A stretch of 64,000 bases of DNA, taken from the NCBI GenBank assembly GCA_964346655.1, contig CAYFVP010000141.1, forward strand, positions 5,362 through 69,361, written 5' to 3'. This stretch comes from an uncultured Thermoplasmatales archaeon (lineage in GTDB: Archaea > Thermoplasmatota > E2 > DHVEG-1). The position numbers and the translations under genes are program-made. Positions 2,323-57,165 of this stretch are shown piece by piece. How positions within the stretch are numbered: position 1 is the stretch's first letter; the number at the start of each line of letters is the position of its first letter. The notes beneath the pieces were generated by a model, which worked only from the letters and a program-made list of their open reading frames with translations, was not told the origin of the DNA and made no database searches.

Positions 2323-2327
2323 TCTAA

Positions 2328-3053: not shown

Positions 3054-3059
3054 TATTTT

Positions 3060-3479
3060 ATGAAAGGAAGTTATATCTTATTAATCGAATTAAATCAAGA
3101 TTTAAACATTAAAATTGGTAGCCTTGGAAGTATTTTTTTTAAAAAAGGTTTTTACTCTTATATTGGCTCAGCACTAAATGGCCTTGAAAATAGAATTAAA
3201 AGACATATCAGAAAAAAGAAAAACGTTCATTGGCATATTGATTATTTTTTAAAATATGGAAAGATTGTTGATGTATTTTTTAAGGAAAGTAAAACAAGAA
3301 AAGAGTGTAATATAGCCAAAAAATTTGAAAGGAAATTACAAAGTTTTTCTAAATTCGGGTCCAGTGACTGTAAATGTAAAAGCCATCTTTTTTATGGAGA
3401 TAAAATAAAAATTGTGGAGACAATCTATAGTATAAAAATGGAAAAATACCCTTTAATGCAAACACTTAAAGATTTGTAA
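3060..3479 (+). CDS. GIY-YIG nuclease superfamily protein (DUF123-like)
   Basis: GFYSYIGSA GIY-YIG core followed by conserved R and E spacing; 139 aa. Confidence 0.5.
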   Translation: MKGSYILLIELNQDLNIKIGSLGSIFFKKGFYSYIGSALNGLENRIKRHIRKKKNVHWHIDYFLKYGKIVDVFFKESKTRKECNIAKKFERKLQSFSKFGSSDCKCKSHLFYGDKIKIVETIYSIKMEKYPLMQTLKDL

Positions 3480-3484
3480 TTATT

Positions 3485-3814
3485 TTGGATATTCGGGAGA
3501 TTATGGTTGCAATTGTTTATTCAACAATTGATGATATAAAAAAAGCTAGAAGAATTGCTCATACCTTAGTTGAAGAACAACTTGTTGCTTGTGTAAATAT
3601 AATTCCAAATATCGAATCTATTTACAAGTGGAAAGGAAAAATTGAAATGGATAATGAATGCGTTCTTATTGCCAAAACTGTTGATAAGAACGTTAAAAAA
3701 ACTATTACAAGAATCAAATCACTTCACTCATATGAGCTGCCTGATATTATAGTTATTCCAATTATTGGTGGATTTAAAGAATATCTTAATTATATAACAA
3801 ATGAAACATCATGA
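3485..3814 (+). CDS. cutA: divalent-cation tolerance protein CutA
   Basis: About 105 aa with IVYSTIDD...LVACVNIIP...IYKWKG pattern characteristic of the CutA1 family. Confidence 0.7.
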   Translation: MDIREIMVAIVYSTIDDIKKARRIAHTLVEEQLVACVNIIPNIESIYKWKGKIEMDNECVLIAKTVDKNVKKTITRIKSLHSYELPDIIVIPIIGGFKEYLNYITNETS

Positions 3815-4440
3815 AATTTATTTCTCTTGTATCTAGTGGAATTGACTCCCCTGTTGCAACATACTTAATTTCAAAAATATCAAAAGAAATAATTTTACTT
3901 CACGGTGATATAAAGCCTTTTACAGACGATAGAGAAATTAATAATTTCATACTTCTAGCAACTCATCTAAAAAAGATTTCCAAATGTTTATTTAAGGTTT
4001 ATATTTCAGCTCATGGTGAAAGTCTAGAGACCTTTAAAAAAGATTGTAATAATAGATATACCTGCATATTTTGCAAAAGAATGCTTTTAAGATATGCTGA
4101 AAAAATTGCTGAAAAGCTAGAAGCCGATGCAATTGTTATGGGCGATTCTCTTGGTCAAGTTGCCTCTCAAACCCTTCATAATATAAATGTAATTGATAGT
4201 GCAGTAAAAATACCCATAATTAGACCTCTTATCGGATACGATAAAGAAGATATTGTAAAAATTGCAAAAGATATTGGAACCTATGATCTTTCAATTTTAC
4301 CCTCTGATCCCTGTAAAGCAGTACCAAATAAACCTGCAACTCAGGCAAAACTTGATAAAATTTTAGATGAGGAAAAAAAGATTGATGTAGATAAACTAGT
4401 AAATAAAGTAGTTGAAAAATTAAAATTTAAATCAATTTAA
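3811..4440 (+). CDS. ThiI-like PP-loop ATPase domain protein (tRNA sulfurtransferase C-terminal domain, no THUMP)
   Basis: SSGIDSPVA PP-loop motif as in ThiI; 209 aa; overlaps the cutA stop with ATGA. Confidence 0.55.
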   Translation: MKFISLVSSGIDSPVATYLISKISKEIILLHGDIKPFTDDREINNFILLATHLKKISKCLFKVYISAHGESLETFKKDCNNRYTCIFCKRMLLRYAEKIAEKLEADAIVMGDSLGQVASQTLHNINVIDSAVKIPIIRPLIGYDKEDIVKIAKDIGTYDLSILPSDPCKAVPNKPATQAKLDKILDEEKKIDVDKLVNKVVEKLKFKSI

Positions 4441-4590
4441 TACTTTTGATAACCTATTTATGCTAACTATTTAAAATAAAACCTTTTTATTATATTTTGG
4501 TACAATTCAAAACAAAAAATATTTATTAAAAATACGGTCTTTTATGTCTAAAATATCCTTAAAATCAAAAGATTTAAATACTTTCATTAT

Positions 4591-4637
4591 ATACTATATA
4601 ATGTAGAATAATTATTATAGTATACAATATGTTGTAT
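4591..4637 (+). promoter_or_regulatory. two tandem putative NrdR boxes upstream of nrdR-nrdD-nrdG
   Basis: atactatataatgtag (4591-4606) and atacaatatgttgtat (4622-4637) match the 16-bp NrdR-box palindrome consensus acaCwAtATaTwGtgt at 11/16 and 13/16. They are spaced 31 bp start to start, the typical tandem arrangement, and lie 25-70 bp upstream of the nrdR ATG. Confidence 0.5.
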
Positions 4638-4662
4638 CTTATGTCTATCTGGAGAGCTTGAA

Positions 4663-5145
4663 ATGGAGTGCCCTTATTGTCATAATTCTGAAACAAAAGT
4701 AACCGACTCCCGCGATACAGGAGCTTTGTCAATTAGAAGAAGAAGGGAGTGTCTTAAATGTAGCAGAAGATTCACAACTTACGAACATATCGAAATGACC
4801 CAACTATATGTAATTAAAAAGGATGGCAGACGTGAAAAATTTGATAGAAACAAGATAAAAATAGGCATTATGAAAGCTCTTGAAAAAAGACAAGTAAGTC
4901 ATGATGAAATTGAAAAAATAGTTGATTCAATTGAAGAAAAAATAAGAAGACTTGGTAATGAAGAAATTGAAACCTCTGTAATTGGTGAATATGTAATGGA
5001 TGCTTTAAAAAACACTGATCATGTGGCCTATATCAGGTTTGCATCAGTCTATAGATCATTTACTGACCTTTCATCTTTTGAAAAAGAGGTTAAAAATCTA
5101 ATAAATCAATCAACTGGAGAGGTAAAAAATGATAAGAAAAATTAA
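4663..5145 (+). CDS. nrdR: transcriptional repressor NrdR (zinc ribbon + ATP-cone)
   Basis: MECPYCHNSETKVTDSRD...RRRECLKCSRRFTTYE is the NrdR N-terminal zinc ribbon, followed by an ATP-cone; 160 aa; overlaps the nrdD start. Confidence 0.85.
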   Translation: MECPYCHNSETKVTDSRDTGALSIRRRRECLKCSRRFTTYEHIEMTQLYVIKKDGRREKFDRNKIKIGIMKALEKRQVSHDEIEKIVDSIEEKIRRLGNEEIETSVIGEYVMDALKNTDHVAYIRFASVYRSFTDLSSFEKEVKNLINQSTGEVKNDKKN

Positions 5146-8100
5146 AAAAAGAGATGGGAAAATAACAGATTTTAATCCAATAAAAATAACAGAAGCGATT
5201 TGGAAGGCAGCCCAAGCAGTTGGCGGAAAGGATTATAAAAAATCAACTGAACTAACAGATAAAGTATTGATAAGACTTGAAAAGGAGTTAAAAAAAGGGG
5301 AAATTCCAACTGTTGAACAAGTTCAAAATGTTGTTGAAAAGACACTGATTGAGGAGGGTCATGCAAGAACAGCAAAGGCTTATATTCTGTATAGGAAACA
5401 ACATCAAGATATCCGAGAAATTGGAGGACTTCTGAAAGATATCGATGTTGTCGATGGATATTTATCAATGATGGATTGGAAGGTACAAGAGAACAGTAAC
5501 ATGGCCTATTCATTACAGGGATTAAATGTTTATGCAACTGAAAATATCATATCTCACTATTGGTTGAATAAAATATATCCACCAGAAATAGGAGAGGCTC
5601 ATACTAATGGTCAGTTTCATATTCATGATCTTGGTACTCTTGGAGCTTATACCTATTTTGGTAAAGAAACAATAATTGCCAAGGTCGATGGAAAAATCTT
5701 GATAACATCCTTTGAGGATCTTTATAAAAATACCAATTCAAAAGAAAACCTTATTTCAGAAAAGGATGATGCATGGGCACGATATCCAAAAGAAATTGAG
5801 GTGCTTGATAAGGATGGTTGGACTAAAGTTCTGAGAGTTGTAAAAAAAGCAAAACGAATACAAATGCATTTTATAAAAAACGAAGGTGGACGATCTGTAA
5901 TTGTTACTGAAGACCATCCAATGGTTCTGGGTGATGAAATTTTCAAAGAAGCAAAAGATATTATTCCTGAAGAAGATAAACTTTTAACGGTTGATATACA
6001 AGAGTTGCTTAAAAATGAAAATCTTTTTTATAAAAAATATCTTTATTTGGCTGATGAGCTTTATAAAAAAGATATTTTAGATTTTTTCATAGAAGGAATG
6101 CCACTGGAAGAATACCAAAAATTTTCAAACGACCTACAAATAAATGGAATTATTTCTACTTCAAATAATGCAGACTGTTTACCAAATAAAATAGAACTAA
6201 CTGAAAATCTTGGATATCTTGTTGGATTTTATCTAGCCGAGGGCTACATGGAGCTGCATAGGATCGGAATAACTCAAAAAGATACAGTAGAAAATAAAAA
6301 GATAATTGAAAAATTTAAAAAAGGCGCAAATGAACTTGGTTGCAGAATTTATTCGATGAAAGAAAATGATCTATTAAGACTCAGAATTGTAAACTCTACC
6401 TTAGTTAATTTCCTATTCAAAGAAATATTTAATTTAACAGGAAAATGTAAAGAAAAGCATCTACCAAATGAAATACTTACATATAACCAAGATTTTATCA
6501 AAGGTGTAATTGCAGGACTGCTTGATGGAGACGGTTCAGTAAATAGCTCGAAAACTAGTCTAGAGCTTAGAACAGCATCAAGAACAATGCTTGAACAACT
6601 AGCTGTTGTTATGAACATTTTTGGTTATACTATTAGAGACAGGAATCTGGAAGGAGTTGGTTCTACAAGATATCTCAATGGCAGACTTATTACTCAAAAT
6701 TATCCCTTATATGGAATAAGTTTTAGAAAAATAGATTGTTGTTTAAATTCGATTAAATACGCATCTGCTCAAACCTCTTCAAGAGCATGGAGGGCAGAAG
6801 GAGCTGGTTGGCATAAGGTCTTAAACAATGAAAAAACAGATATAATGGATGATTACATCTATGATATCACAACTGAATCAAACACTCTGATAGTAAATGG
6901 AATGTGGAACCATAACTGTGTAGGTTGGGATTTAAAAGACATATTGCTGTTAGGTTTCAAGGGAGTTGCAGGAAAAATTGAAAGTAAACCTGCAAAACAC
7001 TTCGGTACTGCACTAATGCAAATTGTAAATTATCTCTATACACTTCAGGGGGAAGCAGCTGGAGCACAAGCTCTATCTAACTTTGACTCTTTGTTGGCAC
7101 CTTTTATTAGATACGATGGTCTGAAATATGGTGATGTTAAACAAGAGATGCAGAAATTTTTATTCAATATGAATGTTCCTACAAGAGTAGGTTTCCAATC
7201 TTTAGCTCATGATGAACCCATAATTTATAGAAAAGATGGTAAAATAAAGGTTGAATTAATAGGAAAACTAATCGAAGAAAAATTTGGAGAAAATAGAAAA
7301 TCAATAATAAATAATGTAGATGGTTATGGCAATCCTTCTAAAGATTCATTTGCAGTAATACCAAATAACAAATTTGAAGTAATGAGCTTTAACAAAAAAG
7401 GTGAGATTCAATGGAGCCCGATAAAAGCATTGATTAAACATAGGGTAATAACTAATGGATTTAAAAAAATAAGGACAGGTTCAGGTGTTCTAAAAGTTTC
7501 CCCAGCTCATTCACTCTTCAGAAGCAATAGCAATCACATTAAACCTGTCATGGCAAAAGAACTAGAATGTGCTAAACCAAATTCAACATTAAATGGAAAT
7601 AACCACATACTAGCAGTTAACAAACTCAAACAAAATATTTTAGGTAATAATGACAGAATTGATTTATTTGATTTGATAGAAGAAATCCCTGAAAAAATAA
7701 AAAAACGAATATTTATTCAGGCAAAGGATGTACCATCAATAAAGCAAAAAATTGGTAACTTATATGGTTCATTAAAGGAATTTCTTTATAAAAATGGAAG
7801 ATCTGACAAATCCACTTTGTATGAAGGTTTTAGAAATAATATTGTTACTTTTGAAACCTATATTAAATATTCGGATGAATTAAGAAGTGATGCAAAGATT
7901 TACATAAAACCATATAACGAAAACCTTTATGATAGATATCTAAGTGGAGAGAAACTTAAGAATTTCGTAAAGCTAGTCGCTTGGTTTATAACAGAAGGAA
8001 AAGCATCTCATTCAGGAATTGTGATTTCACAGAGAAAAAGTAAAAGCAAGGAAATCCTTGAAGTTGCAAAAGCATTAGGAATTAAAGCTACCATAGAAGA

Positions 8101-11100
8101 AACCAGAGGATATAGCAATAAAAACCATAGTAAAACAAATACAATCATTTCAAATATGAAAATGAGTGGACTATACACTTATTTACTCCCATACATAGGT
8201 GGAGCTACCTCAAAAGAAAAGACTATACCTTCTTTCATATTTGATCTGAATCCAAATTATAGAAATATTTTCTTAGAGACACTGTTCAAAGGCGATGGAT
8301 ATAATGATAAAAAATCGAGAAGAATAACATATTCCTCAATGTCAGATAAACTTCTAACTGGCATATCGATGCTAAGCATAGTAAACGGATGGAGAGTTCG
8401 GGTAGTTCCAAAAAATAAAGATAGAGCTGGAACCCTACTTATATATAAAAATCCTAGGAAAAAGCTTGAGATAATCATTGAGGAAACAGCTGGTGTTCCA
8501 GTTTATGAAATAAATGATTATAAAAACGGCTCAAAATGGGAATATGATATTTCAGTGGACATCAATGGTTGCGAAGAAAATTTTGTTGGAGGAACTGGTC
8601 TAGTGTTTTATCATAATTCACCATTTTCAAACATAACTTTAGATCTTACTATTCCTAGCTATTTGACAGATGAACCTGCTATCATAGGTGGAGAATTAAA
8701 AAATGAAAACTACAGTGATTTCGTTGATGAAATGGAAATGATAAACTATGCATTTGCAGAAGTCATGCATGAGGGAGATGCTAAAGGGAGACCAATGACG
8801 TTTCCCATCCCTACTTATAACATTACAAAAGATTTTGATTGGGATAATGAGGGACTTGAACCTATTTGGAAGATGACTGCTAAATATGGAATACCATATT
8901 TTTCCAATTTTATTAACAGTGATATGAATCCAGATGATGCACGAAGCATGTGCTGCAGACTTAGATTAGACAACAGAGAACTTCGAAAGCGTGGTGGAGG
9001 TTTATTTGGAGCTAATCCAAAAACTGGAAGTGTTGGTGTTGTGACAATAAACATGCCACAAATTGGATATCTAGCAAAAGATGATAATGACTTTTTTGAA
9101 AGACTTGATAAATTAATGGATTTAGCAAAACAAAGTCTTATTATTAAACGTGAAATAATCGAAAATTTCACTTTTAGCGGTCTACATCCGTATTCACGAT
9201 TTTATTTATCTGATGTTAAAAAAACATTTAAGGAATACTGGAAGAATCATTTTTCGACCATTGGCTTGATTGGAATGAATGATGCTTTGTTGAACTTTAT
9301 GAACAAAAGTATTGGTGATAAGGAAGGTAAAGCTTTTGCTGAGAAAGTACTTGATCATATGCGGGATAAGATAGCGGATTTTCAGGAGGAAACTGGTGAT
9401 ATTTTTAACCTTGAAGCAACTCCTGCGGAGGGTAGTTTAGCACCTGATGAAAGAGTAATTATCTCTCAAAGTGACCCAAGATTTAGTGCAATTGGTCCAT
9501 TAATTGATTATTATCTAGAGAGCAATAAAAACGATATTTATATGGTTGGGACTAGCGAGGTTCTTAAAATTCCATATGGGAAGTTGTTTACCTATGGGTT
9601 TAGTAGGAGGACGCAAAAAATTAAAAAATACCCGGTTACTGCCCTTGTAAGACACTTTGGTAAGTCAATGTATGAAATAACCACACGTTCTGGTAGAAAA
9701 GTAAGAGTTACCGGACAACACAGTGTTTTTTCATTGAACTCGGAGGGATCACCTGAGGAGATCTATGTAAGAGATCTTGATATTGGTACCCCTATTGCTA
9801 TTCCAAAATATATTGAAATGGAATCACGCTATAAAGAGTTTAATTTATTTGAATTGTTCAAAAACTCGTCCTTTAAAAACCAACTATATGGAAAATTCCC
9901 ATCTACTTTTATCGAACACCTACTCAAAGAATCAAGAATAGAAAGATGGTGTAATCAAAACTATAAATCTAAATGGAAAGATGTAAAGTATATGTGGAGG
10001 AAAAGGGGTGTTATTCCTCTGAAGTTGATTTATGATTTAGATATCAAGATACAAAAAAATGTGTTGAAAAACTCAAAATTATTCTATCGATCTTCAAAGA
10101 ATACCAACCCAATTAAGGTTTTGATACCAGTTAATGAAGATCTTGGTTTTATAATTGGTTGCCTTCTTTCTGAGGGATGGTTGACTAAAAGATGTGAATT
10201 CACTAATACTGACAAGGATCTTGTAGATCAGTTTCTGAAATCTGTTGAAAAAATATTTGGTCCTAGCTCTGCTCATATTGCTAATCAAAACCGTAAGGAA
10301 CCACGAAAAACTCTTTATTCTGTTACTTTGAGTAAGTCTATCGGTTTTTTCTTTAAAGAAATTTGTTTCCAAGGTAAATCTAAAGTTAAAGAAATACCGA
10401 ATTTTATTTATTCATCTTCTCTTAAATGCATTACAGGTCTTTTAAGAGGTTATTATCTTGGTGACGGTTCTTTTTATAAAAATAAAGATAAACGGGATTA
10501 TTCAATATGGTTATATACAAATTCTAAGGAATTATCTGAAGGTCTGAATTTACTTCTTCTTAGATCTGGGATTCTTACAAAGATCGGGGTAGATAAAAAA
10601 ACAAATTATAATTCAAAGTGGAACGATAATTATGTTATATCTATTACTGGTGCTGATAATTTAAGTACGTTTTTCAAAAAAATACTTAAAAAGGATTTTA
10701 GCACAGACAATGCTCATTCGGGAAGAGAAATTTTACCTAATATCCCTAAAATTCTAAAACAATTAATGCAGAAATATAACATTAAACCATCTGATATAAA
10801 TATTCATAAAGACAGTTTTAATAGAAATATTAGAATCAACAGAATTAGCATTCAATATCTTAGAAAAATCATTGAGAAACTTTCGATCTATGTAGAAGAA
10901 AAAGATGAAACATTTGAAAAACTTAGAACAATGATTAACTCTGATATATATTGGGATGAAATTAAGGAAATTAAAAAACTAAAACCCACTAAATATGTTT
11001 ACGATTTTGAAGTTGATATAAAGGATGATCTTGTCAACAATTTCCTTGGTGGAAGTGGACTGGTTTGTTTGCACAATACAAGTTATCGTATTGCAAGAAT

Positions 11101-11602
11101 TGATAAAGCCCAATATCCTGATATTAGAATTTATAATCAGGAAAAATATAACGGTGGAAATGGCGGTAAAGGAGTAGAACCTTATTATACAAATTCTACA
11201 CAGTTACCTGTTGGTTATACAAGTGATGTTTTTGAAGCTTTAGATTTGCAAGACTCCCTACAATCAAAATATACCGGTGGAACCGTTTTGCATATCTTCC
11301 TTGGAGAAGAACCCTCTTTTGGTGCTGTTAGAAAGCTGGTACGTAAGATTGCAGAGAATTATCATTTACCATATTATACTCTAACTCCAACCTTTAGCGT
11401 ATGTCCAAATCACGGATATATTGCCGGTAAACATAAAACATGTCCTATTTGTGTTAGGGATAAAATAATTACAGCATGTGAGGTATATTCTCGAGTTGTA
11501 GGTTATTTAAGGCCTGTAAATCAATGGAACAAAGGCAAACAGCAGGAATTTTCAGATCGTAAAACATTTGATATGATGGAAAAAGTTATGGTTAAGAAAT
11601 GA
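5129..11602 (+). CDS. nrdD: anaerobic ribonucleoside-triphosphate reductase NrdD (class III, glycyl-radical enzyme) interrupted by three inteins
   Basis: Extein motifs ATENI...NGQFHIHDL, CVGWDL, PFSNITLDL, CCRLRLD, NLEATPAEG/TSYRIAR, YYTNSTQLP, and the C-terminal CPICV zinc site with the glycyl-radical region RVVGYLRPVNQWNKGKQQE. 2157 aa in total against about 716 aa of extein. Confidence 0.9.
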   Translation: MIRKIKKRDGKITDFNPIKITEAIWKAAQAVGGKDYKKSTELTDKVLIRLEKELKKGEIPTVEQVQNVVEKTLIEEGHARTAKAYILYRKQHQDIREIGGLLKDIDVVDGYLSMMDWKVQENSNMAYSLQGLNVYATENIISHYWLNKIYPPEIGEAHTNGQFHIHDLGTLGAYTYFGKETIIAKVDGKILITSFEDLYKNTNSKENLISEKDDAWARYPKEIEVLDKDGWTKVLRVVKKAKRIQMHFIKNEGGRSVIVTEDHPMVLGDEIFKEAKDIIPEEDKLLTVDIQELLKNENLFYKKYLYLADELYKKDILDFFIEGMPLEEYQKFSNDLQINGIISTSNNADCLPNKIELTENLGYLVGFYLAEGYMELHRIGITQKDTVENKKIIEKFKKGANELGCRIYSMKENDLLRLRIVNSTLVNFLFKEIFNLTGKCKEKHLPNEILTYNQDFIKGVIAGLLDGDGSVNSSKTSLELRTASRTMLEQLAVVMNIFGYTIRDRNLEGVGSTRYLNGRLITQNYPLYGISFRKIDCCLNSIKYASAQTSSRAWRAEGAGWHKVLNNEKTDIMDDYIYDITTESNTLIVNGMWNHNCVGWDLKDILLLGFKGVAGKIESKPAKHFGTALMQIVNYLYTLQGEAAGAQALSNFDSLLAPFIRYDGLKYGDVKQEMQKFLFNMNVPTRVGFQSLAHDEPIIYRKDGKIKVELIGKLIEEKFGENRKSIINNVDGYGNPSKDSFAVIPNNKFEVMSFNKKGEIQWSPIKALIKHRVITNGFKKIRTGSGVLKVSPAHSLFRSNSNHIKPVMAKELECAKPNSTLNGNNHILAVNKLKQNILGNNDRIDLFDLIEEIPEKIKKRIFIQAKDVPSIKQKIGNLYGSLKEFLYKNGRSDKSTLYEGFRNNIVTFETYIKYSDELRSDAKIYIKPYNENLYDRYLSGEKLKNFVKLVAWFITEGKASHSGIVISQRKSKSKEILEVAKALGIKATIEETRGYSNKNHSKTNTIISNMKMSGLYTYLLPYIGGATSKEKTIPSFIFDLNPNYRNIFLETLFKGDGYNDKKSRRITYSSMSDKLLTGISMLSIVNGWRVRVVPKNKDRAGTLLIYKNPRKKLEIIIEETAGVPVYEINDYKNGSKWEYDISVDINGCEENFVGGTGLVFYHNSPFSNITLDLTIPSYLTDEPAIIGGELKNENYSDFVDEMEMINYAFAEVMHEGDAKGRPMTFPIPTYNITKDFDWDNEGLEPIWKMTAKYGIPYFSNFINSDMNPDDARSMCCRLRLDNRELRKRGGGLFGANPKTGSVGVVTINMPQIGYLAKDDNDFFERLDKLMDLAKQSLIIKREIIENFTFSGLHPYSRFYLSDVKKTFKEYWKNHFSTIGLIGMNDALLNFMNKSIGDKEGKAFAEKVLDHMRDKIADFQEETGDIFNLEATPAEGSLAPDERVIISQSDPRFSAIGPLIDYYLESNKNDIYMVGTSEVLKIPYGKLFTYGFSRRTQKIKKYPVTALVRHFGKSMYEITTRSGRKVRVTGQHSVFSLNSEGSPEEIYVRDLDIGTPIAIPKYIEMESRYKEFNLFELFKNSSFKNQLYGKFPSTFIEHLLKESRIERWCNQNYKSKWKDVKYMWRKRGVIPLKLIYDLDIKIQKNVLKNSKLFYRSSKNTNPIKVLIPVNEDLGFIIGCLLSEGWLTKRCEFTNTDKDLVDQFLKSVEKIFGPSSAHIANQNRKEPRKTLYSVTLSKSIGFFFKEICFQGKSKVKEIPNFIYSSSLKCITGLLRGYYLGDGSFYKNKDKRDYSIWLYTNSKELSEGLNLLLLRSGILTKIGVDKKTNYNSKWNDNYVISITGADNLSTFFKKILKKDFSTDNAHSGREILPNIPKILKQLMQKYNIKPSDINIHKDSFNRNIRINRISIQYLRKIIEKLSIYVEEKDETFEKLRTMINSDIYWDEIKEIKKLKPTKYVYDFEVDIKDDLVNNFLGGSGLVCLHNTSYRIARIDKAQYPDIRIYNQEKYNGGNGGKGVEPYYTNSTQLPVGYTSDVFEALDLQDSLQSKYTGGTVLHIFLGEEPSFGAVRKLVRKIAENYHLPYYTLTPTFSVCPNHGYIAGKHKTCPICVRDKIITACEVYSRVVGYLRPVNQWNKGKQQEFSDRKTFDMMEKVMVKK
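5654..6916 (+). mobile_element. NrdD intein 1 (about 421 aa) with LAGLIDADG homing endonuclease domain
   Basis: Block B TEDH, LAGLIDADG motifs LGYLVGFYLAEGY and IKGVIAGLLDGDGSV, C-terminal NGMWNHN followed by the +1 Cys of CVGWDL. The N-terminal boundary is uncertain by 2 aa and has no Cys/Ser at position 1. Confidence 0.75.
7199..8617 (+). mobile_element. NrdD intein 2 (473 aa) with LAGLIDADG homing endonuclease domain
   Basis: Starts SLAHDEPII (Ser1 block A), block B SPAH, LAGLIDADG-like LVAWFITEGKA and FLETLFKGDGY, ends GGTGLVFYHN with +1 Ser (SPFSNITLD). Inserted in the conserved TRVGFQ/SPF site. Confidence 0.8.
9434..11077 (+). mobile_element. NrdD intein 3 (548 aa) with LAGLIDADG homing endonuclease domain
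   Basis: Starts SLAPDERVI right after TPAEG, block B TGQH, LAGLIDADG motifs LGFIIGCLLSEGW and ITGLLRGYYLGDGSF, ends GGSGLVCLHN with +1 Thr (TSYRIAR). Confidence 0.8.
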
Positions 11603-12291
11603 ACATAGGTGGTCTTCAAAAAACATCACTTTTGGATTACCCTGATACAATTAGTGCAATAATTTGGACAGTTGGATGTAATTTCCGTTGTCCTTTTTGT
11701 TATAACAAAGACCTTGTTTTAGGTAATGTTGAAAATATTTCCGAAAAAGATATTTTCTCATTTCTTGAAAAAAGAAAAGGCTTGCTTGAAGGATTGGTAA
11801 TTTCCGGTGGAGAACCACTTATGCAAAAGGACATTGTCCAGTTTATAGAAAAAGTGAAAAAACTTGGTTATAAAATAAAAATTGACACAAACGGAATGTA
11901 TCCAGAAAAACTCAAAGAGCTTATTGATAAAAAACTTGTTGATTACATTGCTATGGATATTAAGGCACCTATTGATAAATATGACCAATTGTCTGGAATA
12001 AAAACAGATATAAAAAAGATTGAAAAATCAATTGAAATAATTCGTAATTCTTCTGTTGATTACGAGTTTAAAACAACTTTTGTTCCTAGTCTTTTAACAA
12101 AGGAAGATATCCTTAGTATCGGAAAATTGCTTAAAGGATCTAAAAAATACTATCTTCAACAGTTCAAAGGTGATGTTCCTCTTATTTCTTCTAAACTTGA
12201 AAATGCCAATCCATATTCAAAAGATGATTTATTTGATACTTTAGAAAAGATTAAACCTTATTTTAAATTCTGTGATATTAGAGGTATATGA
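11599..12291 (+). CDS. nrdG: anaerobic ribonucleotide reductase activating protein (radical SAM)
   Basis: GCNFRCPFCYN CxxxCxxC cluster motif and GGEPLMQ; ATGA overlap with the nrdD stop. Confidence 0.85.
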   Translation: MNIGGLQKTSLLDYPDTISAIIWTVGCNFRCPFCYNKDLVLGNVENISEKDIFSFLEKRKGLLEGLVISGGEPLMQKDIVQFIEKVKKLGYKIKIDTNGMYPEKLKELIDKKLVDYIAMDIKAPIDKYDQLSGIKTDIKKIEKSIEIIRNSSVDYEFKTTFVPSLLTKEDILSIGKLLKGSKKYYLQQFKGDVPLISSKLENANPYSKDDLFDTLEKIKPYFKFCDIRGI

Positions 12292-12725
12292 CAGTTTTAA
12301 GTGAAGAAATTCTTAAGGATCTTGAACTTGCAAGAAATGTGATTGCAACCGAAGATATTTCTGTAGTTGTTGTCAAATATGGAAAAATATGGAAGAAGAA
12401 AAAAGGGGATGGAGTGCGATCAATTCTAGAAACAATTATTGAGATGGGTAAAGATATTAACGGGTCAGTTATTGGAAAAAAAATTCTTGGAAAGGCATCA
12501 GCTCTTCTTTGCAGATATGCAAAGGTATCTGGTGTTTACTCTCCTCAAGGAACAAAAACCGCTATTGCTCTCTTAATCATGGGGGGAGTTCCCTGCCGGG
12601 TTGATAAGATGATTCCCTTTATTGAAAATAATGACAGTTCAGGCCTTTATATTTTTGAAAAAATGCTAAAAGAGATTAATTCACCAAATGAGGCATACGC
12701 AATTTTAAAAGAAAAACTTCTATAA
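12288..12725 (+). CDS. hypothetical protein (145 aa, possibly DUF1893/TM1506-like), translationally coupled to nrdG
   Basis: 4-nt overlap with the nrdG stop; no CxxC motif; the family assignment is from memory only. Confidence 0.4.
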   Translation: MTVLSEEILKDLELARNVIATEDISVVVVKYGKIWKKKKGDGVRSILETIIEMGKDINGSVIGKKILGKASALLCRYAKVSGVYSPQGTKTAIALLIMGGVPCRVDKMIPFIENNDSSGLYIFEKMLKEINSPNEAYAILKEKLL

Positions 12726-23343: not shown

Positions 23344-24414
23344 ATGATACATATATCAAATATGTGGAATATACGTCTTGGTACAAAGGGAAGAAAGGCT
23401 AAATGCCTAATATGTAATAAAGAAAGCGAATTTATTTCTGACGCTTTAAAATTATGTCTATCTTGCATAAGAAAAAAACCTGAAGAAGCTTTTAAGATTA
23501 CAAAAAATGTTCATAAAAAAATCAGAGAAGAATATAATCTCCCAGGAGAACCACCCAAGGATAAAAGGGGACTACAATGTAAAATTTGTAGTAACAAGTG
23601 TAAAATCGGAAAAGGAAAAAAAGGATACTGTGGTCTAAGGAAAAATATCAATGGTAAACTTGAAACAATTGAAGGAATTTTACACACTTATTATGATCCA
23701 ATACCTACTAATTGTTGTGCATCTTGGTTTTGTTCTGGAAGTAAAGAAAGAGGTTTAAGTCTAGCTGTTTTCCCATTCGGTTGCACCTTTAACTGCGTCT
23801 TTTGTCAAAACTGGACTCATAAATTTATCGAAAGCGGCGATCATATTACAATAGAACATTTAGTAAGAGAAGCCAAGGCTGCTCGTTGCATCTGCTATTT
23901 CGGTGGAACACCTGAACCTCAGCTTCCTTTTCTTCTTAGAGCAACTAAGAAAATACTAGAAAATATGAACCTAAAGATTTGTTGGGAATGGAATGGGACA
24001 GGAAATAAAGATCTAGTTCGAAAAGCTGCAGAGTATTCCTATACAACAAATGGGACAATTAAATTTGATTTAAAGTCATTTGATTGCAATCTTCATATAT
24101 GCCTGACTGGTAGATCTAATAAAAGGACATTAGATAATTTTCAGAGGATCGCTGAAGAATACAAAAAAAATGATTTTCTAACAGCAACGACACTTCTGGT
24201 TCCTGGTTATGTCGATAGAGAAGAAGTAGAAAAAATCGCAAAGTTTATCTCAAATCTGAATAAAGATATTCCTTATTCACTTCTTGGTTTTCATCCTGAC
24301 TTTAAGATGATTGACATGCCAATAACCTCTATAAAACAAGCTGAAGAATGCTATCAGATTGCAAAGAAATATCTAAACCGAGTTAATATTGGAAATAGGC
24401 ACCTCCTGGTGTAA
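23344..24414 (+). CDS. radical SAM enzyme, PflA-like (AmmeMemoRadiSam-type) with extra N-terminal zinc ribbon
   Basis: Motif CKICSNKCKIGKGKKGYCGLRKN (Cx2Cx3C...GxCGxR) followed by GCTFNCVFCQNW (CxxxCxxC); N-terminal CLICN...CLSC ribbon. Confidence 0.7.
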   Translation: MIHISNMWNIRLGTKGRKAKCLICNKESEFISDALKLCLSCIRKKPEEAFKITKNVHKKIREEYNLPGEPPKDKRGLQCKICSNKCKIGKGKKGYCGLRKNINGKLETIEGILHTYYDPIPTNCCASWFCSGSKERGLSLAVFPFGCTFNCVFCQNWTHKFIESGDHITIEHLVREAKAARCICYFGGTPEPQLPFLLRATKKILENMNLKICWEWNGTGNKDLVRKAAEYSYTTNGTIKFDLKSFDCNLHICLTGRSNKRTLDNFQRIAEEYKKNDFLTATTLLVPGYVDREEVEKIAKFISNLNKDIPYSLLGFHPDFKMIDMPITSIKQAEECYQIAKKYLNRVNIGNRHLLV

Positions 24415-24488
24415 AAAATATTTTTTTCTAGTTTAATTTGGATTAAATAAGTTTTTAATCATCTTTTTCATTGATAAAGCACGATTTT

Positions 24489-24611
24489 ATGGAAATTGTA
24501 CCACTTAACGAGGTAGAAGAAACATTAAAAGCATGGAAAAAGAAAAAACAAAAAAAGAAAAAAGATAAGAAAAAAGAAGCAAAAAAGAAAAAAATGGAAG
24601 ATGATAAATAA
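24489..24611 (+). CDS. small Lys-rich ORF (40 aa, MEIVPLNEVEETLKAWKKKKQKKKKDKKKEAKKKKMEDDK)
   Basis: ATG at 24489, TAA overlapping the ATG of the next gene (TAATG). It may be translated or merely an A-rich spacer. Confidence 0.3.
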   Translation: MEIVPLNEVEETLKAWKKKKQKKKKDKKKEAKKKKMEDDK

Positions 24612-25279
24612 TGTCAAAAGTAAAAGGTTTGTCTTCTGAGAGGATTGCAAAAAGACTACTTGAAAGTAGAGGTTTTCATATTTTATCAACAAATCATGCA
24701 ATAATGGAGGGGGACGAAAAGGTTGCGGAAGTAGATATCATTGCTGAAGATGCAAATAGTGAAAGATATGCTGTTGAAGTAAAAGCTGGTAAGGCAGATG
24801 TTAATTCAATTAGACGAGCCTATGCAAATGCAAAACTTTGCGAGTATAAGCCTATGCTTATATGCAAGGGTTACGCAGACGATGCAGTACAAAAAGCTGC
24901 TTTAAAACTAGATGTTAAAGTTGTTGAACTAAGTGAGTATTATTTACTTCTTGAACCAGAGGAATTGGAAAGCATTATTAAAAAATGTGTTGAAGAAGTA
25001 TTCGAAACACATGGTTTTTTACCATACTCAGCAGAGATCGATGATAAGGATAGAAAACTCTTAAAAGTAATCTCCACTGCAAGGAATTTCGACGAAGCTG
25101 CTGAACAAATTAAAATTAATAGGAAACAACTTGGTAAAAAAATAGAGGATTTAACAATCCGTGGAATTCTTCCAAAGAGATCTTTGAGTTTTAGAGATCT
25201 TAAAAGATGTTCTTCTTCAATTTTAGCAAGATCTGAAATTATGTCAAAACTTAATAAAATAGAAAGAAGGTTAAAATGA
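24611..25279 (+). CDS. Hjc-like PD-(D/E)xK nuclease domain fused to a C-terminal helical/HTH-like extension
   Basis: GLSSERIAKRLLESRGFHIL...VAEVDIIAED...YAVEVKAGK reproduces the Hjc resolvase layout (ER...GF...ExDIIA...ExK). 222 aa against about 130 for Hjc. Confidence 0.5.
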   Translation: MSKVKGLSSERIAKRLLESRGFHILSTNHAIMEGDEKVAEVDIIAEDANSERYAVEVKAGKADVNSIRRAYANAKLCEYKPMLICKGYADDAVQKAALKLDVKVVELSEYYLLLEPEELESIIKKCVEEVFETHGFLPYSAEIDDKDRKLLKVISTARNFDEAAEQIKINRKQLGKKIEDLTIRGILPKRSLSFRDLKRCSSSILARSEIMSKLNKIERRLK

Positions 25280-26076
25280 AGAGTTACCCTCGATTTTTAA
25301 CACCTAGTTCAAAGCCTTTTAATCCAGTTGAGTTAACAAGAAAGACTGAGAAACTGGTTTGCAGAAAAAGAAAGAGGAAATACACTGATTTTTATGCAAC
25401 TGGTGTATATGGTGGTATTGCCACAGGCTACACCTGTGGTTGTTGTTTACGTTGCGTATTTTGTTGGGTTGATTGGAGCAGGGATTTCCCTGAGAAATAT
25501 GGCAGGTTTTATTCCTCTGAAGAAGCGTTTAAAAGATTATCCCAGGCAGCAGATGAGTATGGAACAAATAAGTTGAGATTGTCTGGAGCGGAACCTACTT
25601 TAGGAAAGGAACATCTTTTATCGGTTCTAGAACTTGTTGAGCGTTCTAAATATAAGTTGTTTATTTTAGAGACAAATGGCATACCTTTTGGGATTGACGA
25701 GGAGTATGTGGAAAAGATTTCAGAATTCAAAAAGGTGTATGTCAGAATTTCTTTAAAGGCTGGTACACCTATGGATTTCACACGGAAAACAGGGGCAGCA
25801 AGTGAAAGCTTTGAACTCCCTTTTAAAGGTATTAAAAATTTGATTAGGCATGGTTGCAGTTTTCATGTAGCTGCGATGAGCGCTGATCCAAGAATAATAA
25901 GCTCTAGTGAAAGGGTTTCGCTTCTTAAAAAAATAGCTGAGATAGATAAAAACCTTCTCATAAGTTTAGAAGAGGAGGTCATGGACCCATATCAGACAAC
26001 ATTGAAACGTTTAAAATACGCAGAGTGTGAAATAGAATGGCCTCTGAAAGAAATCTATAAACCTATCAAGCTGTGA
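25276..26076 (+). CDS. radical SAM enzyme (PflA/NrdG-like core, 266 aa)
   Basis: GYTCGCCLRCVFCW CxxxCxxC motif and SGAEPTL (SGGEP-like) SAM motif; ATGA overlap with the upstream gene. Confidence 0.65.
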   Translation: MKSYPRFLTPSSKPFNPVELTRKTEKLVCRKRKRKYTDFYATGVYGGIATGYTCGCCLRCVFCWVDWSRDFPEKYGRFYSSEEAFKRLSQAADEYGTNKLRLSGAEPTLGKEHLLSVLELVERSKYKLFILETNGIPFGIDEEYVEKISEFKKVYVRISLKAGTPMDFTRKTGAASESFELPFKGIKNLIRHGCSFHVAAMSADPRIISSSERVSLLKKIAEIDKNLLISLEEEVMDPYQTTLKRLKYAECEIEWPLKEIYKPIKL

Positions 26077-26089
26077 AAAGAGACGTGTT

Positions 26090-27112
26090 ATGAAAAAGTC
26101 ACAGATTAAGGGAAAAGATGATGAATTACAATATCTCGAAGAACTCAGAGAGTGTAGACTCTGCAGTTGGGAATGTAGTGTAAATAGATTAGAAGAGGAC
26201 CGAGGTGTCTGCGGTATAGGTATTCCAGTAACGGCATCATCAATGCTTCATCCTGCGCCACCAGCTAGTTACGATGCATTCTTAGTTGGATGCTCATTCC
26301 GGTGCCTTTTTTGTCAAAATTGGAGAATCTCAAATTTCCCTGATAACCCATGTTCATATGACGTAGAAGGATATTATCCTCCACGAAAATGGGCAGAGTT
26401 AGCGTTAAACAATCTGAAATCTTCCTCGGCACAACTTATCGGTGCGGATAGACTGTTTTTTACAGGTGGAGAACCTAGTTGTTCTCTCCCATGGGTAGAA
26501 GAAGTAGTAAGAGAAGCCAGGAGAATAGACCCAACTGTTAAAGTTAATTATGACACCAATGGCTTCCTAACAAAAAAATCATTGTTAAGGGTCCTTAATT
26601 TTGCAACTTCAATAACCTTTGATATTAAGGCATATAGTGAAAAAATCCACCGGGCTTTAACTGGTGCACCCATAGAACCAGTGCTACAAAATGCAGAATA
26701 CCTTGGTAAAAAAGCAAAGGAGAAAATTTGGGAAATTAGAGTTATGGTAATACCAAAAATACATAAAAAAGAAATACAACCGCTATGTGAATTCATAGGA
26801 AGTATTGATACAACACTACCAGTTTGTTTTTTAGCGTATCGCCCTAACTTTGTAATGGCCACTTCATCTGGAGCTACTTTGGAGTTGATGGAGTATTGTG
26901 TTAATACTGCAAAAAAATCTGGTATTGAAAATGTTCATTGGAGCGGCACAGTTGGCATAAAAGGTGAGAACCCAAAGGGTGATGACATAAAACTTGCATA
27001 TGCTTATGTAGAGATGGGAGGATGCATTCAAAAACAGAGGAGGAATTGTAAAACCTGTACAAATATGGATAATTGCAAGGTTAAAAAACATATACCTTTC
27101 AGGAGTACCTAA
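26090..27112 (+). CDS. radical SAM enzyme, PflA-like (AmmeMemoRadiSam-type)
   Basis: CRLCSWECSVNRLEEDRGVCGIG (Cx2Cx3C...GxCG) then GCSFRCLFCQNW; TGGEPS motif. Confidence 0.7.
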   Translation: MKKSQIKGKDDELQYLEELRECRLCSWECSVNRLEEDRGVCGIGIPVTASSMLHPAPPASYDAFLVGCSFRCLFCQNWRISNFPDNPCSYDVEGYYPPRKWAELALNNLKSSSAQLIGADRLFFTGGEPSCSLPWVEEVVREARRIDPTVKVNYDTNGFLTKKSLLRVLNFATSITFDIKAYSEKIHRALTGAPIEPVLQNAEYLGKKAKEKIWEIRVMVIPKIHKKEIQPLCEFIGSIDTTLPVCFLAYRPNFVMATSSGATLELMEYCVNTAKKSGIENVHWSGTVGIKGENPKGDDIKLAYAYVEMGGCIQKQRRNCKTCTNMDNCKVKKHIPFRST

Positions 27113-27114
27113 TA

Positions 27115-27594
27115 ATGGGGCTGAAAATTTTTCATTCACAAATTAGTAACAAAAACATTCGAAAAATACAAAGTGCATTGGAAAAAACGTATGGATATAT
27201 ACTAGATGTTAGTATTGGAGGAGAATTAGAATTACCTAAAGAAGTATATAACTCGCAGAGAGATCAATACAATGCAGATATCCTACTAACATATCTTATA
27301 AAAACAATAAAGACGGACACTGCTCTATGGGTTATACAAAAAGATCTCTACTGCAAAGGTATGAACTTCATTTTTGGATATGCTTTATCACATAGAGGTG
27401 CTATTCTATCGATTTACAGATTATCCAGTAATGAATTAATAGAAAAAGAAGCTAAACATGAAGTTGGGCATATACTAGGTTTACAACATTGCAGCAATCA
27501 ATGTGTCATGCAATTTTCAAATTCCCTTTGGGAGGCAAAAATGAAACCATCGTATCTATGTGAAAGTTGTAAAAGAAAAATAACCTTTTTTTAA
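27115..27594 (+). CDS. amzA: archaemetzincin (zinc metalloprotease)
   Basis: HEVGHILGLQHCSNQCVM extended HExxHxxGxxHC...C motif plus C-terminal CESCKRK, diagnostic of archaemetzincins; starts 3 nt after the upstream radical SAM gene. Confidence 0.8.
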   Translation: MGLKIFHSQISNKNIRKIQSALEKTYGYILDVSIGGELELPKEVYNSQRDQYNADILLTYLIKTIKTDTALWVIQKDLYCKGMNFIFGYALSHRGAILSIYRLSSNELIEKEAKHEVGHILGLQHCSNQCVMQFSNSLWEAKMKPSYLCESCKRKITFF

Positions 27595-27646: not shown

Positions 27647-28600
27647 TCATATTCTTTTAGCCTCATAGGTAATCCATCTTCCAGATGAAAAATCTTCCAA
27701 GACCAGATCACTAGCTTTAGATATTTTTTTATCAGTTCTAGCTACCAAGATCCCACGATTACCCATTTCTTTATATCTAGAAGATGAAAATATTGTGATA
27801 CATCTGTCTCTATATATACTAATACCTAGAGTATTATAATCATGCCCTTTAATGAAAACTTTAGCATTTATCTCATCTAAAAATTTGACTAAATCATCTT
27901 CAGTAAATGGTTTACCAGCTCCTCTAAAAGTTGGTGAAACAACTGGGTCGCTCCACACAAGTGATTCGATAGCTCTCAAATCATTTTTTCCTGTTTTTTT
28001 CAACTGTTCTAAATCAGCATCCTTTAAAATTCCTCCATGTGCTGCAAATATGTTGTTTGTAATAACCATCAATGGCATTAATGAAAATATATTAACATAT
28101 TTTCCATGTAAATCAGAAGAACCATATCTTTGAATTATCTCAAATTCAAATTCATATGGAAAACAAGGAATGGCATAGTTGCATTCATGATTGCCCTTTA
28201 AGAGAACTATTTTTTCTGGATAAATGTATTTTAGAAGGAGCAAATATGTGATGTTATAAATAGATCCCCATTTCATTGGTTCCCGGTCTACATAGTCTCC
28301 TAGAAAAACTAAATGGTTTACATTAAAAAATCTCTGAATAATAGCTTTTGTTGTATTAAAGTCTCCATGAGTATCCCCAATAAACACAACATTTCCATTT
28401 AATTCAATCAATGCTTTTTCTCTTTCCAAAATAGGCTTTACTCTATCTAAATAGTCACTTATTTCATTTTCATCTAAACAAGCAATATAGTCTGGGTCGT
28501 TTACAACCTTGTTTATTATATTATCTACATCTGTCATTTTTAATTTTATGAGGAAAAATATTATACAAAAATCAATTATTCCATGTAAATATTTTTCCAT
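27647..28600 (-). CDS. PPP-family Ser/Thr protein phosphatase (calcineurin-like metallophosphoesterase)
   Basis: GDTHGD, GDYVDR and GNHE motifs in the canonical order. Confidence 0.75.
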   Translation of the reverse strand: MEKYLHGIIDFCIIFFLIKLKMTDVDNIINKVVNDPDYIACLDENEISDYLDRVKPILEREKALIELNGNVVFIGDTHGDFNTTKAIIQRFFNVNHLVFLGDYVDREPMKWGSIYNITYLLLLKYIYPEKIVLLKGNHECNYAIPCFPYEFEFEIIQRYGSSDLHGKYVNIFSLMPLMVITNNIFAAHGGILKDADLEQLKKTGKNDLRAIESLVWSDPVVSPTFRGAGKPFTEDDLVKFLDEINAKVFIKGHDYNTLGISIYRDRCITIFSSSRYKEMGNRGILVARTDKKISKASDLVLEDFSSGRWITYEAKRI

Positions 28601-28603
28601 AAA

Positions 28604-29137
28604 GTGATAAATTTGAAAATATTAGGTATTGATCTTGCAGGAAAATCAAAAAATCCTACTGGAATATGTATTTTTAAAGACAACGATATAATCATAAAAA
28701 CAGTAAATAAAGACAAAGAAATACTAGAAATCGCAAGTACATTAAAACCAGATATTATTGCAATCGACGCGCCAATAATGTCTGGAAAACCAAAGATTAG
28801 AAAAGCCGATATAATACTTAAAAAATACAAGGCTTTTCCACCAACCCTACCTGGTATGATACCATTAACAATACGAGGATCAAAACTTGCAACACAGCTT
28901 TTAAAGCTTGGTCCCGTAATTGAAGTATTTCCTACTGCAACTACAAAGATACTAGGGATCTATCATAAAAATTACAAGAAAACCGCTGCAATTTTGGATG
29001 TAAAAATTAAAACCAAACATGAACTCGATGCATATATTTGTTGTCTAACTGGAAAATTGTTTATCGAAGGAAAAACAGAAAATGTAGGCAATGAAAAAGA
29101 AAAAATCATTATTCCAAAGGAAAAATCATTTGCATAA
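28604..29137 (+). CDS. DUF429 family protein (RNase H-like fold)
   Basis: ILGIDLAGK start and IIAIDAPI segment as in DUF429. Confidence 0.45.
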   Translation: MINLKILGIDLAGKSKNPTGICIFKDNDIIIKTVNKDKEILEIASTLKPDIIAIDAPIMSGKPKIRKADIILKKYKAFPPTLPGMIPLTIRGSKLATQLLKLGPVIEVFPTATTKILGIYHKNYKKTAAILDVKIKTKHELDAYICCLTGKLFIEGKTENVGNEKEKIIIPKEKSFA

Positions 29138-57097: not shown

Positions 57098-57165
57098 ACG
57101 AATAAAAAGGTATATTTCACAAGATTTATAACAGAATCGCATATACTGAGGCTGAGAACTGGTAA

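Follow-up and report, generated by a model that had tools for sequence, protein, structure and literature searches.

What kind of system is encoded where three radical S-adenosylmethionine (SAM) enzymes, a nuclease and a metalloprotease lie one behind the other in an archaeal genome? The question is raised by a stretch of 64,000 nucleotides (hereafter the window; contig CAYFVP010000141.1) from an uncultured Thermoplasmatales archaeon, an AT-rich sequence of ~30% GC belonging to a Thermoplasmatota metagenome-assembled genome (MAG). Six open reading frames (ORFs), all on the + strand, were read at the expected positions: a radical SAM gene (rSAM-1), a lysine-rich small ORF, a gene for a nuclease with a helix-turn-helix domain (nuclease-HTH), two further radical SAM genes (rSAM-2 and rSAM-3) and a gene for an archaemetzincin (M54). 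An earlier note on this DNA had suggested that these genes, in this order and with tight spacing, form one modification-processing module. The genes, their order and their spacing are borne out by the ORF coordinates and Pfam domains. The single unit is not, as rSAM-1 is separable, the rSAM-2/rSAM-3 pair is deletable, and orthologs of nuclease-HTH and M54 occur without the pair. We favour instead, with moderate confidence, a mosaic composed of a stand-alone rSAM-1, a unit of small ORF, nuclease-HTH and archaemetzincin, and a self-contained rSAM-2/rSAM-3 system embedded within that unit.

Operon organisation and deletion of the radical SAM pair

The five downstream genes are closely packed. The small ORF (24489-24611; 40 aa, MEIVPLNEVEETLKAWKKKKQKKKK...) has a conserved ATG at 24489, the mechanically assigned start being a TTG at 24471, and its stop overlaps the start of the nuclease-HTH gene (24611-25279; 222 aa, with UPF0102/Mrr_cat in the N-terminal half) as TAATG. 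The nuclease-HTH gene in turn overlaps rSAM-2 (25276-26076; 266 aa, PF04055) as ATGA, and gaps of 13 and 2 nt separate rSAM-2 from rSAM-3 (26090-27112; 340 aa, PF04055) and rSAM-3 from the archaemetzincin gene (27115-27594; 159 aa, PF07998). These gaps had previously been given as 14 and 3 nt, and the spacer between rSAM-1 and the small-ORF ATG as 70 rather than 74 nt, corrections that leave the tight spacing intact. The operon is flanked by a calcineurin-like phosphoesterase gene (27647-28600, - strand) and a DUF429 gene (28604-29137, + strand), both assigned by Pfam and lying outside the operon; this flank is syntenic, the same two genes being found 3' of M54 in the related loci L001, L007 and L097 (loci compared with the window are given L numbers).

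The evidence for a separable pair comes from relatives of this cluster, in which rSAM-2 and rSAM-3 are present, decaying or gone. The order small ORF, nuclease-HTH, rSAM-2, rSAM-3, M54 is found in L178 (nuclease-HTH 77% identical) and in L007/L013 (the complete MAG CP070798.1; 84%), where the small ORF lies ~180 nt upstream. L177 (91%) has the small ORF, nuclease-HTH and rSAM-2, followed ahead of M54 by a 66-aa ORF that is the C-terminal remnant (last 66 codons) of rSAM-3, with 75% identity over 53 residues. The M54 gene follows directly upon nuclease-HTH in L097, L098 and L099 (83-89%) and in L001 (71%). In DNA and protein alignments of these four pair-less loci, M54 starts where rSAM-2 does in the window, its ATG overlapping the nuclease-HTH stop as ATGA, and its first 14-16 codons match the 5' end of rSAM-2 exactly or closely (MKSYPRFLTPSSKPF). 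Such leaders of rSAM-2 origin lie at L097:1068-1120, L098:587-640, L099:790-840 and L001:7666-7710; that of L098 reads MKSSPRFLTPDSKPFD, against MKSYPRFLTPSSKPFN in the rSAM-2 of the window, and then passes into M54 sequence (EIFYSQ).

Because the motif YPRFxTP belongs to the pan-phylum rSAM-2 consensus, the junction is a deletion scar and not the footprint of an insertion. On these alignments, the pair proved dispensable and was removed by in-frame deletion in four close relatives, with the coupling of nuclease-HTH to M54 retained; the five-gene arrangement is ancestral in the clade, and the pair has since been lost or is in decay. The same in-frame junction occurs in lineages 71-89% identical to the window, yet L007, at 84%, retains the pair, which suggests either a presence/absence polymorphism spread by recombination or recurrent deletion. 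The claim that an integrated module recurs as a unit thus stands for the five genes from small ORF to M54 in L007 and L178, and fails in the five relatives where the pair has been deleted or has decayed. With the full pair, an rSAM-3 remnant and the loss of both genes represented in near-identical backgrounds, this natural deletion series amounts to a comparative knockout.

The small ORF tracks nuclease-HTH, not the pair, and is kept whether the pair is present or absent. Its core, PLxEVEETLxAWKKKK, was found 5' of nuclease-HTH in L001 (6889-7014), L007 (6049-6156), L097 (287-403), L177 (6879-7001) and L178 (6885-7001), as in the window, and nowhere else in ~180 loci. The small proteins of these six loci, 35-41 aa in length, combine an acidic N-terminal half with a poly-Lys tail (PLxEVEETLxAWKKKKQKKK) coded on long A-rich runs, and the ORF overlaps or abuts the nuclease-HTH start in all but L007. 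Small ORF, nuclease-HTH and archaemetzincin form a separate, translationally coupled unit of one Thermoplasmatota clade, presumably transcribed as one, whose coupling survives removal of the radical SAM genes. More distant nuclease-HTH orthologs, at 44-53% identity, stand alone (L003, L005).

A conserved small ORF at the head of an operon would also suit a pathway akin to those for ribosomally synthesised and post-translationally modified peptides (RiPPs), in which rSAM-2 and rSAM-3 would modify the lysine-rich product as a precursor, the single Trp beside its Lys run being one possible site, and the archaemetzincin would trim it. We regard such a pathway as highly improbable: where the pair is deleted, the small ORF is still found with nuclease-HTH and M54, in all other lineages it is missing beside the pair, Pfam and NCBIfam scans showed no SPASM, twitch or RiPP-recognition domain, and the 53-70% identity of rSAM-2 between archaea and bacteria is atypical for peptide maturases.

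On its 5' side the mosaic ends at rSAM-1 (23344-24414; 356 aa, with M7, at 23362, as a possible true start). A T7 run (24421-24427, + strand) lies 7 nt 3' of the rSAM-1 stop codon, and the AT-rich spacer that follows holds a TTAAATA (24443-24449, + strand) 40 nt 5' of the small-ORF ATG; the equivalent spacer is conserved in L097. Oligo-T is a termination signal in archaea, and the T7 run together with the promoter-like spacer likely marks a transcript boundary after rSAM-1. No rSAM-1 occurs upstream of the cluster in L007 and L178, and in L177 an ortholog (83%) lies upstream, split from the cluster by an opposite-strand gene for a B12-binding radical SAM protein. Because of the T7 run past its stop and its absence or displacement in these three loci, rSAM-1 is considered a separate neighbouring gene, which would have a transcript end of its own. 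The co-expression that the earlier note drew from tight coupling can be kept from the small ORF to M54, five of the six genes being translationally coupled, and is given up for rSAM-1. Rfam and tRNA scans of the window gave no matches, and a scan for sigma-70 promoters and hairpin terminators, models that are not applicable to archaea, gave no hits above shuffled sequence. In L177, the region 5' of the operon (1913-6674) encodes a nitroreductase-domain protein of 526 aa, the ortholog of rSAM-1 and the B12-binding protein of 641 aa, the last with a weak cytochrome-b561-like C-terminal region.

The rSAM-2/rSAM-3 pair beyond the clade

rSAM-2 has 3780 homologs and is very strongly conserved: an alignment of 22 sequences spanning several phyla has 86 invariant columns. 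At least 80 of its loci, drawn from species-representative genomes of archaea and bacteria in which rSAM-2 is 53-83% identical, were compared with the window proteins by tblastn, co-occurrence being judged from these loci. The archaeal hosts are Thermoplasmatota, Methanocellales, Bathyarchaeia, Hadarchaeota, Asgard groups, Thermoproteota and Hydrothermarchaeota; the bacterial hosts are anaerobes of the Planctomycetota/Phycisphaerae, Dehalococcoidia, Aminicenantes, Sumerlaeota and Spirochaetales. Orthologs of rSAM-3 (54-80%) adjoin rSAM-2 in eight of the loci listed, among them L013 and L014 (Methanocellales), L032 (Methanomassiliicoccales) and L033, L040, L041 and L072 (Thermoplasmata). The order is inverted, rSAM-3 preceding rSAM-2, in seven of the eight, mostly with a stop/start overlap, and outside the clade the pair occurs without nuclease-HTH, small ORF or M54. 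By these neighbourhoods, the radical SAM pair is the only one of the three units seen to recur beyond the clade.

The window copies are nearer to those of Methanocellales (71% for rSAM-2, 60% for rSAM-3) than to those of other Thermoplasmata (57-63% and 54-59%), and the two genes were probably transferred together. Locus comparison shows them inherited, rearranged and lost as a unit. Its core enzyme is rSAM-2, which is widespread and has one predicted cluster; rSAM-3 is one of several PflA-like, predicted multi-cluster partners found beside rSAM-2. Orthologs of the window genes are otherwise largely dispersed in relatives, an outcome that the earlier note had named as telling against a module, and the rSAM-2/rSAM-3 sub-module is the exception.

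When the genes immediately beside rSAM-2 were classified by Pfam, Radical_SAM was the sole recurrent family (11 of 133 neighbours); next came lineage-restricted genes, namely MazG-like (4), aldehyde:ferredoxin oxidoreductase (AOR; 3), DUF362 (3) and M54 (2). At an assumed background of 1.5%, the excess of radical SAM neighbours has a binomial tail of ~6e-6, or ~2e-4 when roughly corrected for the independence of lineages. A second Thermoplasmata clade (L032, L033, L040, L041 and L072; e.g. L072:3746-6236) has an RNase_H_2 gene (PF13482), rSAM-3 and rSAM-2 in succession with overlaps, so that two clades of Thermoplasmata have nucleic-acid enzymes of unlike folds directly 5' of the pair, PD-(D/E)xK-HTH in one and RNase_H_2 in the other. 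In the loci of this second clade, MazG-like, DUF429 and AOR genes lie on the opposite strand, and genes for ArcTGT and an RMMBL metallo-beta-lactamase are found upstream. Hadarchaeota loci show rSAM-2 convergent with an AOR gene (L008-L010, L016, L017, L021), with a 4-nt overlap of the 3' ends in L008-L010 and L016, and a DUF362 gene is divergent upstream of rSAM-2 in L008-L010, L016 and L017.

These AOR neighbours could be taken to assign rSAM-2 to the maturation or cofactor modification of a tungstopterin AOR, its presence in the operon of the window being incidental. The convergent neighbour in Hadarchaeota, an AOR gene two to three genes away in five Thermoplasmata loci, and a best NCBIfam match to archaeal MoaA (40.9 bits) are consistent with such a role. 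It is nevertheless very unlikely, given that the scan of window ORFs turned up no AOR, that rSAM-2 gave no match at E<0.01 to TIGR04317 (tungsten cofactor oxidoreductase radical SAM maturase), and that AOR is an immediate neighbour in 3 of 133 cases only, in anaerobes of a kind where AOR genes are common. The AOR cofactor-modifying protein of Pyrococcus (cmo) was considered as a lead, and no literature in support was found.

Several observations weigh against the mosaic, some of them by loosening the pair and others by tying the three units together. About 63 of 79 rSAM-2 loci are without a radical SAM neighbour and, because most loci are of this kind, rSAM-2 may have no need of a partner. Homologs of rSAM-3 at <=50% identity are solitary or near Memo, not beside rSAM-2; the one near Memo, 50% identical, lies two genes from a Memo gene in L095. 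The five-gene order of the clade is kept down to 77% nuclease identity (L007, L178), and in L179 (nuclease-HTH 65%), which lacks M54, an rSAM-2 paralog (39%) stands directly upstream of nuclease-HTH. In the Planctomycetota loci L045, L048, L052 and L068 (also L046 and L053), an rSAM-1 ortholog (42-44%), a DUF488 gene and an M54-like gene (33%) follow one another in this order and in the same direction, with rSAM-2 no more than ~4 kb away (L052:7450-10189; L048:6743-9632; L068:2497-7212; L045:11777-12775). Finally, rSAM-2, a PflA-like radical SAM gene and an rSAM-1 ortholog (47%) are co-directional in the Aminicenantes locus L087.

Three side observations belong to these loci. The paralog of L179 (6259-6975), here termed rSAM-2b, has a counterpart in L007 (13152-13859), ~4 kb 3' of the operon; the two are of 235-238 aa, 39% identical to rSAM-2 and 60% to each other, and the 64-kb window has none. 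A LarA-like/DUF362 gene comes after the cluster in L052. A 501-aa gene in the Aminicenantes three-rSAM cluster was considered as a substrate and rejected; it has no Pfam match and possibly encodes a secreted glycosidase (N-terminal hydrophobic segment, GNEINGEW).

The five-gene order of L007 and L178, the independent co-localisation in Planctomycetota and the arrangement of L179, together with the translational coupling from small ORF to M54 and the co-directional rSAM-1, nuclease-HTH and M54 genes of L097, are what would be expected if nuclease-HTH, radical SAM enzymes and archaemetzincin formed one module, in which the radical SAM enzymes modify a protein, peptide or nucleic acid, the protease processes it, and nuclease-HTH regulates or acts. 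We consider this doubtful. The pair has been deleted or has decayed in five close relatives with nuclease-HTH and M54 still coupled, the pairs of Methanocellales and other Thermoplasmata have neither, and nuclease-HTH is alone in L003 and L005. The M54-like proteins of Planctomycetota are twice as long (332-337 aa), with N-termini that look like signal peptides. Archaemetzincin neighbourhoods point the same way: at least 80 such loci were taken from a metagenome scan, of which the three closest are the deletion alleles L097, L098 and L099, and none of the other 77 (27-61% identity) has nuclease-HTH or rSAM-2 nearby, a single one (L151) having an rSAM-1-like fragment. The recurrences being few and partly non-independent, a real link between radical SAM enzymes and either archaemetzincin or nuclease seems rather improbable, and we return to the mosaic as the frame in which the individual proteins are considered.

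Proteins of the locus and a candidate substrate

All three radical SAM proteins match PF04055 well above its cutoff of 29.5 bits (64.8 for rSAM-1, 66.4 for rSAM-2 and 80.0 for rSAM-3), and their CX3CX2C cores (CTFNCVFC, CCLRCVFC and CSFRCLFC, respectively) are each invariant within their own families. None of the three reaches any curated NCBIfam cutoff, and they fall into no characterised family. rSAM-1 adds to its core an N-terminal zinc-ribbon-like CxxC...CxxC and a Cx2Cx3C...CGxR four-Cys motif, which reads CKICSNKC...GYCGLR, all Cys being invariant in the family alignment. The invariant Cys of rSAM-3 fall into the groups C22, C25, C29 and C41, the core C68, C72 and C75, and C312, C320, C323 and C329, predicted to form three sites of four or three Cys. 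Two of the enzymes had been credited with a complete Cx2Cx3C...GxCGxR motif; this holds for rSAM-1, and rSAM-3 has Cx2Cx3C with the Arg missing (CRLCSWEC...GVCGIG).

rSAM-2 is a compact single-domain radical SAM protein, in which the core C56x3C60x2C63 is the sole Cys motif, accompanied by an invariant adjacent Cys. Its best NCBIfam matches, at ~40 bits, are archaeal MoaA, ScmF and TrsS, followed by HxsC, viperin and NrdG, all at <=41 bits. The AlphaFold2 (AF2) model is a compact radical SAM barrel with a mean confidence (pLDDT) of 89.7, and its nearest folds are the pyruvate formate-lyase activating enzyme (PFL-AE; 3c8f best), QueE, SkfB, viperin, MoaA and TYW1, at TM ~0.5-0.6. As modelled, rSAM-2 is without a close characterised relative among solved structures. 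The description of all three enzymes as PflA/NrdG-like accordingly suits rSAM-1 and rSAM-3; by sequence it does not suit rSAM-2, although the predicted fold of the latter is nearest to PFL-AE and QueE. RaSEA, QueE, MoaA, TYW1 and viperin were each considered as identities and set aside, the similarity being weak and below cutoff throughout; an N-terminal match to TYW1 (E=0.04) was not significant.

The nuclease-HTH protein has 203 homologs, mainly in Thermoplasmatota, labelled by JGI as a predicted RecB family endonuclease. It matches UPF0102 with 28.0 bits against a cutoff of 23.6, and D42, E56-V-K58 (E56-x-K58) and an EYxLLLEPEELE linker are invariant in the alignment. In the AF2 model (pLDDT 84) the C-terminal domain is helical and HTH-like, and the nuclease domain is closest by Foldseek to AF1548 (1y88) and to NucS/EndoMS (2vld), the latter with a root mean square deviation of 1.9 A over 112 columns. 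The restriction-endonuclease-like fold and the D...ExK motif identify it as a PD-(D/E)xK protein. Of the earlier label, an Hjc-like PD-(D/E)xK nuclease with HTH, only the reference to Hjc is to be dropped, as Pfam gave UPF0102 and Mrr_cat alone and NCBIfam only sub-cutoff matches to YraN and NucS.

By Pfam the protease is an archaemetzincin, with 63 bits against PF07998 (cutoff 24.4); its score for the NCBIfam subfamily falls narrowly below cutoff. It is full length and carries the zinc-site motif HExxHxxGxxH, the Met-turn and four Cys in HEVGHILGLQHCx3CxMx16CxxC. The signature of the window protein, HEVGHILGLQHC-SNQ-CVM-x16-CESC, keeps all ligands and the Met, with CX3C and X16 spacing in the clade. 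An acidic substrate groove is reported for the homologous AfAmzA (PMC3427221), and the poly-Lys small protein would be one candidate archaemetzincin substrate because it fits such a groove. Their co-encoding is a lead, not a result.

Within the mosaic, the two enzymes of the pair would act in turn, each by a radical step, on a single conserved substrate of the cell, with nuclease-HTH and archaemetzincin co-expressed in this lineage and mechanistically independent of it. Because rSAM-2 is so extremely conserved across domains, this substrate is expected to be a universal small molecule or macromolecule rather than an operon-encoded peptide, and a role of the pair as glycyl-radical activase or as maturase of an operon peptide is unlikely. 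With low confidence, we suggest that the substrate is a nucleotide or is linked to nucleic acid, a preference that stems from the weak affinity of rSAM-2 to nucleotide and pterin enzymes (QueE, viperin, MoaA) and from the nucleic-acid and nucleotide enzymes in the neighbourhood of the pair. It is possible, but we think improbable, that rSAM-2 and a PflA-like multi-cluster partner of the rSAM-3 or rSAM-1 type form an undescribed nucleotide- or nucleic-acid-acting system that is functionally tied to archaemetzincin and nucleases. Literature searches found no paper connecting archaemetzincin with radical SAM enzymes, nor any on these radical SAM families.

Should that tie exist, the co-localisation with archaemetzincin in Thermoplasmatota and Planctomycetota would provide the first handle on archaemetzincin targets. 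If the pairing of rSAM-2 and rSAM-3 is functional, it would represent a strongly conserved uncharacterised radical SAM system of subsurface anaerobes, with thousands of homologs and no curated family; if it is not, the locus adds one more to the lineage-specific groupings of uncharacterised genes. The conserved trio of small protein, nuclease-HTH and archaemetzincin offers a testable substrate or partner hypothesis for the archaemetzincin family.

Elsewhere in the window, two geranylgeranyl-reductase (GGR)-like flavoproteins are encoded within 5 kb of each other (55907-57142, - strand; 59475-60668, + strand), and a GGR-like gene lies just 5' of the small ORF in L178. Three ORFs on the + strand have no Pfam match (53705-55903, 732 aa; 61956-63029, 357 aa; 1702-2322, 206 aa).

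Comparison with known systems

rSAM-1 and rSAM-3 invite comparison with glycyl-radical activases. Both share the radical SAM core of PFL-AE (TIGR02493, TIGR02494; PDB 3C8F), with E ~1e-6 to 3c8f, and score 55-75 bits against the PFL-AE, YjjW and AmmeMemoRadiSam models, the cutoffs of which are 220-250. Against PFLA (TIGR02493, cutoff 231.75) the values are 55.5 for rSAM-1, 22.7 for rSAM-2 and 59.3 for rSAM-3; against PFLE_PFLC (TIGR02494, cutoff 174) they are 29.4 for rSAM-1 and 52.7 for rSAM-3, with no match of rSAM-2 at E<=0.01; and against NrdG2 (NrdG models TIGR02495/02491, cutoff 131) they are 35.2, 28.3 and 40.5 in the same order of proteins. rSAM-1 and rSAM-3 differ from PFL-AE also in their extra N-terminal Cys groups, to which rSAM-3 adds a C-terminal one.

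The genes for glycyl-radical enzymes that the earlier note proposed to look for are limited, within the window, to NrdD (5129-11602), an intein-containing protein of 2157 aa whose family match is split into four stretches and in which two intein N-terminal splicing regions were detected. It lies between NrdR (4663-5145) and a bona fide NrdG (11599-12291; 231.7 bits, cutoff 131), in a cluster 12 kb upstream of the radical SAM genes; a 145-aa ORF without NCBIfam match (12288-12725, + strand) comes directly 3' of NrdG. As NrdD has its own NrdG, it has no need of the three radical SAM enzymes for its activation. A weak similarity to PFL-AE and pVip would be the trace left by ordinary glycyl-radical-enzyme activases, or by a known anti-phage defence system, and we hold either to be extremely unlikely. 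Scores far under the PFLA, PFLE and NrdG cutoffs, with NrdD served by its own NrdG, speak against ordinary activases. As to defence, PADLOC-DB gave generic pVip similarity for the radical SAM genes only (<=29 bits) and nothing for M54, rSAM-1 or the small ORF, and, in being widely conserved and in synteny, the genes do not resemble those of islands.

AmmeMemoRadiSam (TIGR04337) shares the N-terminal Cx2Cx3C...GxCG(xR) motif with rSAM-1 and rSAM-3 and is the best or second-best NCBIfam match of both, being the best for rSAM-1, yet the scores of 74.7 (rSAM-1) and 61.6 (rSAM-3) bits stand against a cutoff of 220, and neither an AMMECR1 nor a Memo domain was found among the window ORFs scanned. 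Nothing functional on AmmeMemoRadiSam was found in the literature. AmzA (PF07998, NF033823; PDB 2X7M; PMC3427221) shares with the window archaemetzincin its full length, HExxHxxGxxH, Met-turn and four Cys. The reported consensus is HEXXHXXGXXHCX4CXMX17CXXC (PMC3427221), compared with which the window protein has CX3C and X16; it scores 135 bits against the NF033823 cutoff of 145, covering profile positions 8-170 of 170, and is coupled to nuclease-HTH and a poly-Lys ORF. Nuclease-HTH has the N-terminal fold and the D...ExK triad of AF1548 (1Y88), NucS/EndoMS and YraN/UPF0102, to which it adds the HTH-like C-terminal domain and the EYxLLLEPEELE linker, scoring <=26 bits against YraN equivalog cutoffs of 109-124.

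By the defining tests of sequence models, then, the locus lies outside the PFL-AE, NrdG, AmmeMemoRadiSam, LipS, HxsBC and PADLOC systems. LipS1/LipS2 are described in the title of PMC9585515 as annotated as biotin synthases, and this radical SAM pair was rejected as an identity, none of the three proteins having a biotin- or lipoyl-synthase NCBIfam match at E<=0.01. With the HxsC model (cutoff 268 bits) rSAM-2 scores 30 bits, and a gene for a His-Xaa-Ser peptide is absent. LipS1/LipS2 and HxsB/HxsC provide an analogy only: they are likewise two dissimilar, adjacent radical SAM genes that apparently serve one substrate, the arrangement here proposed for rSAM-2 and rSAM-3.

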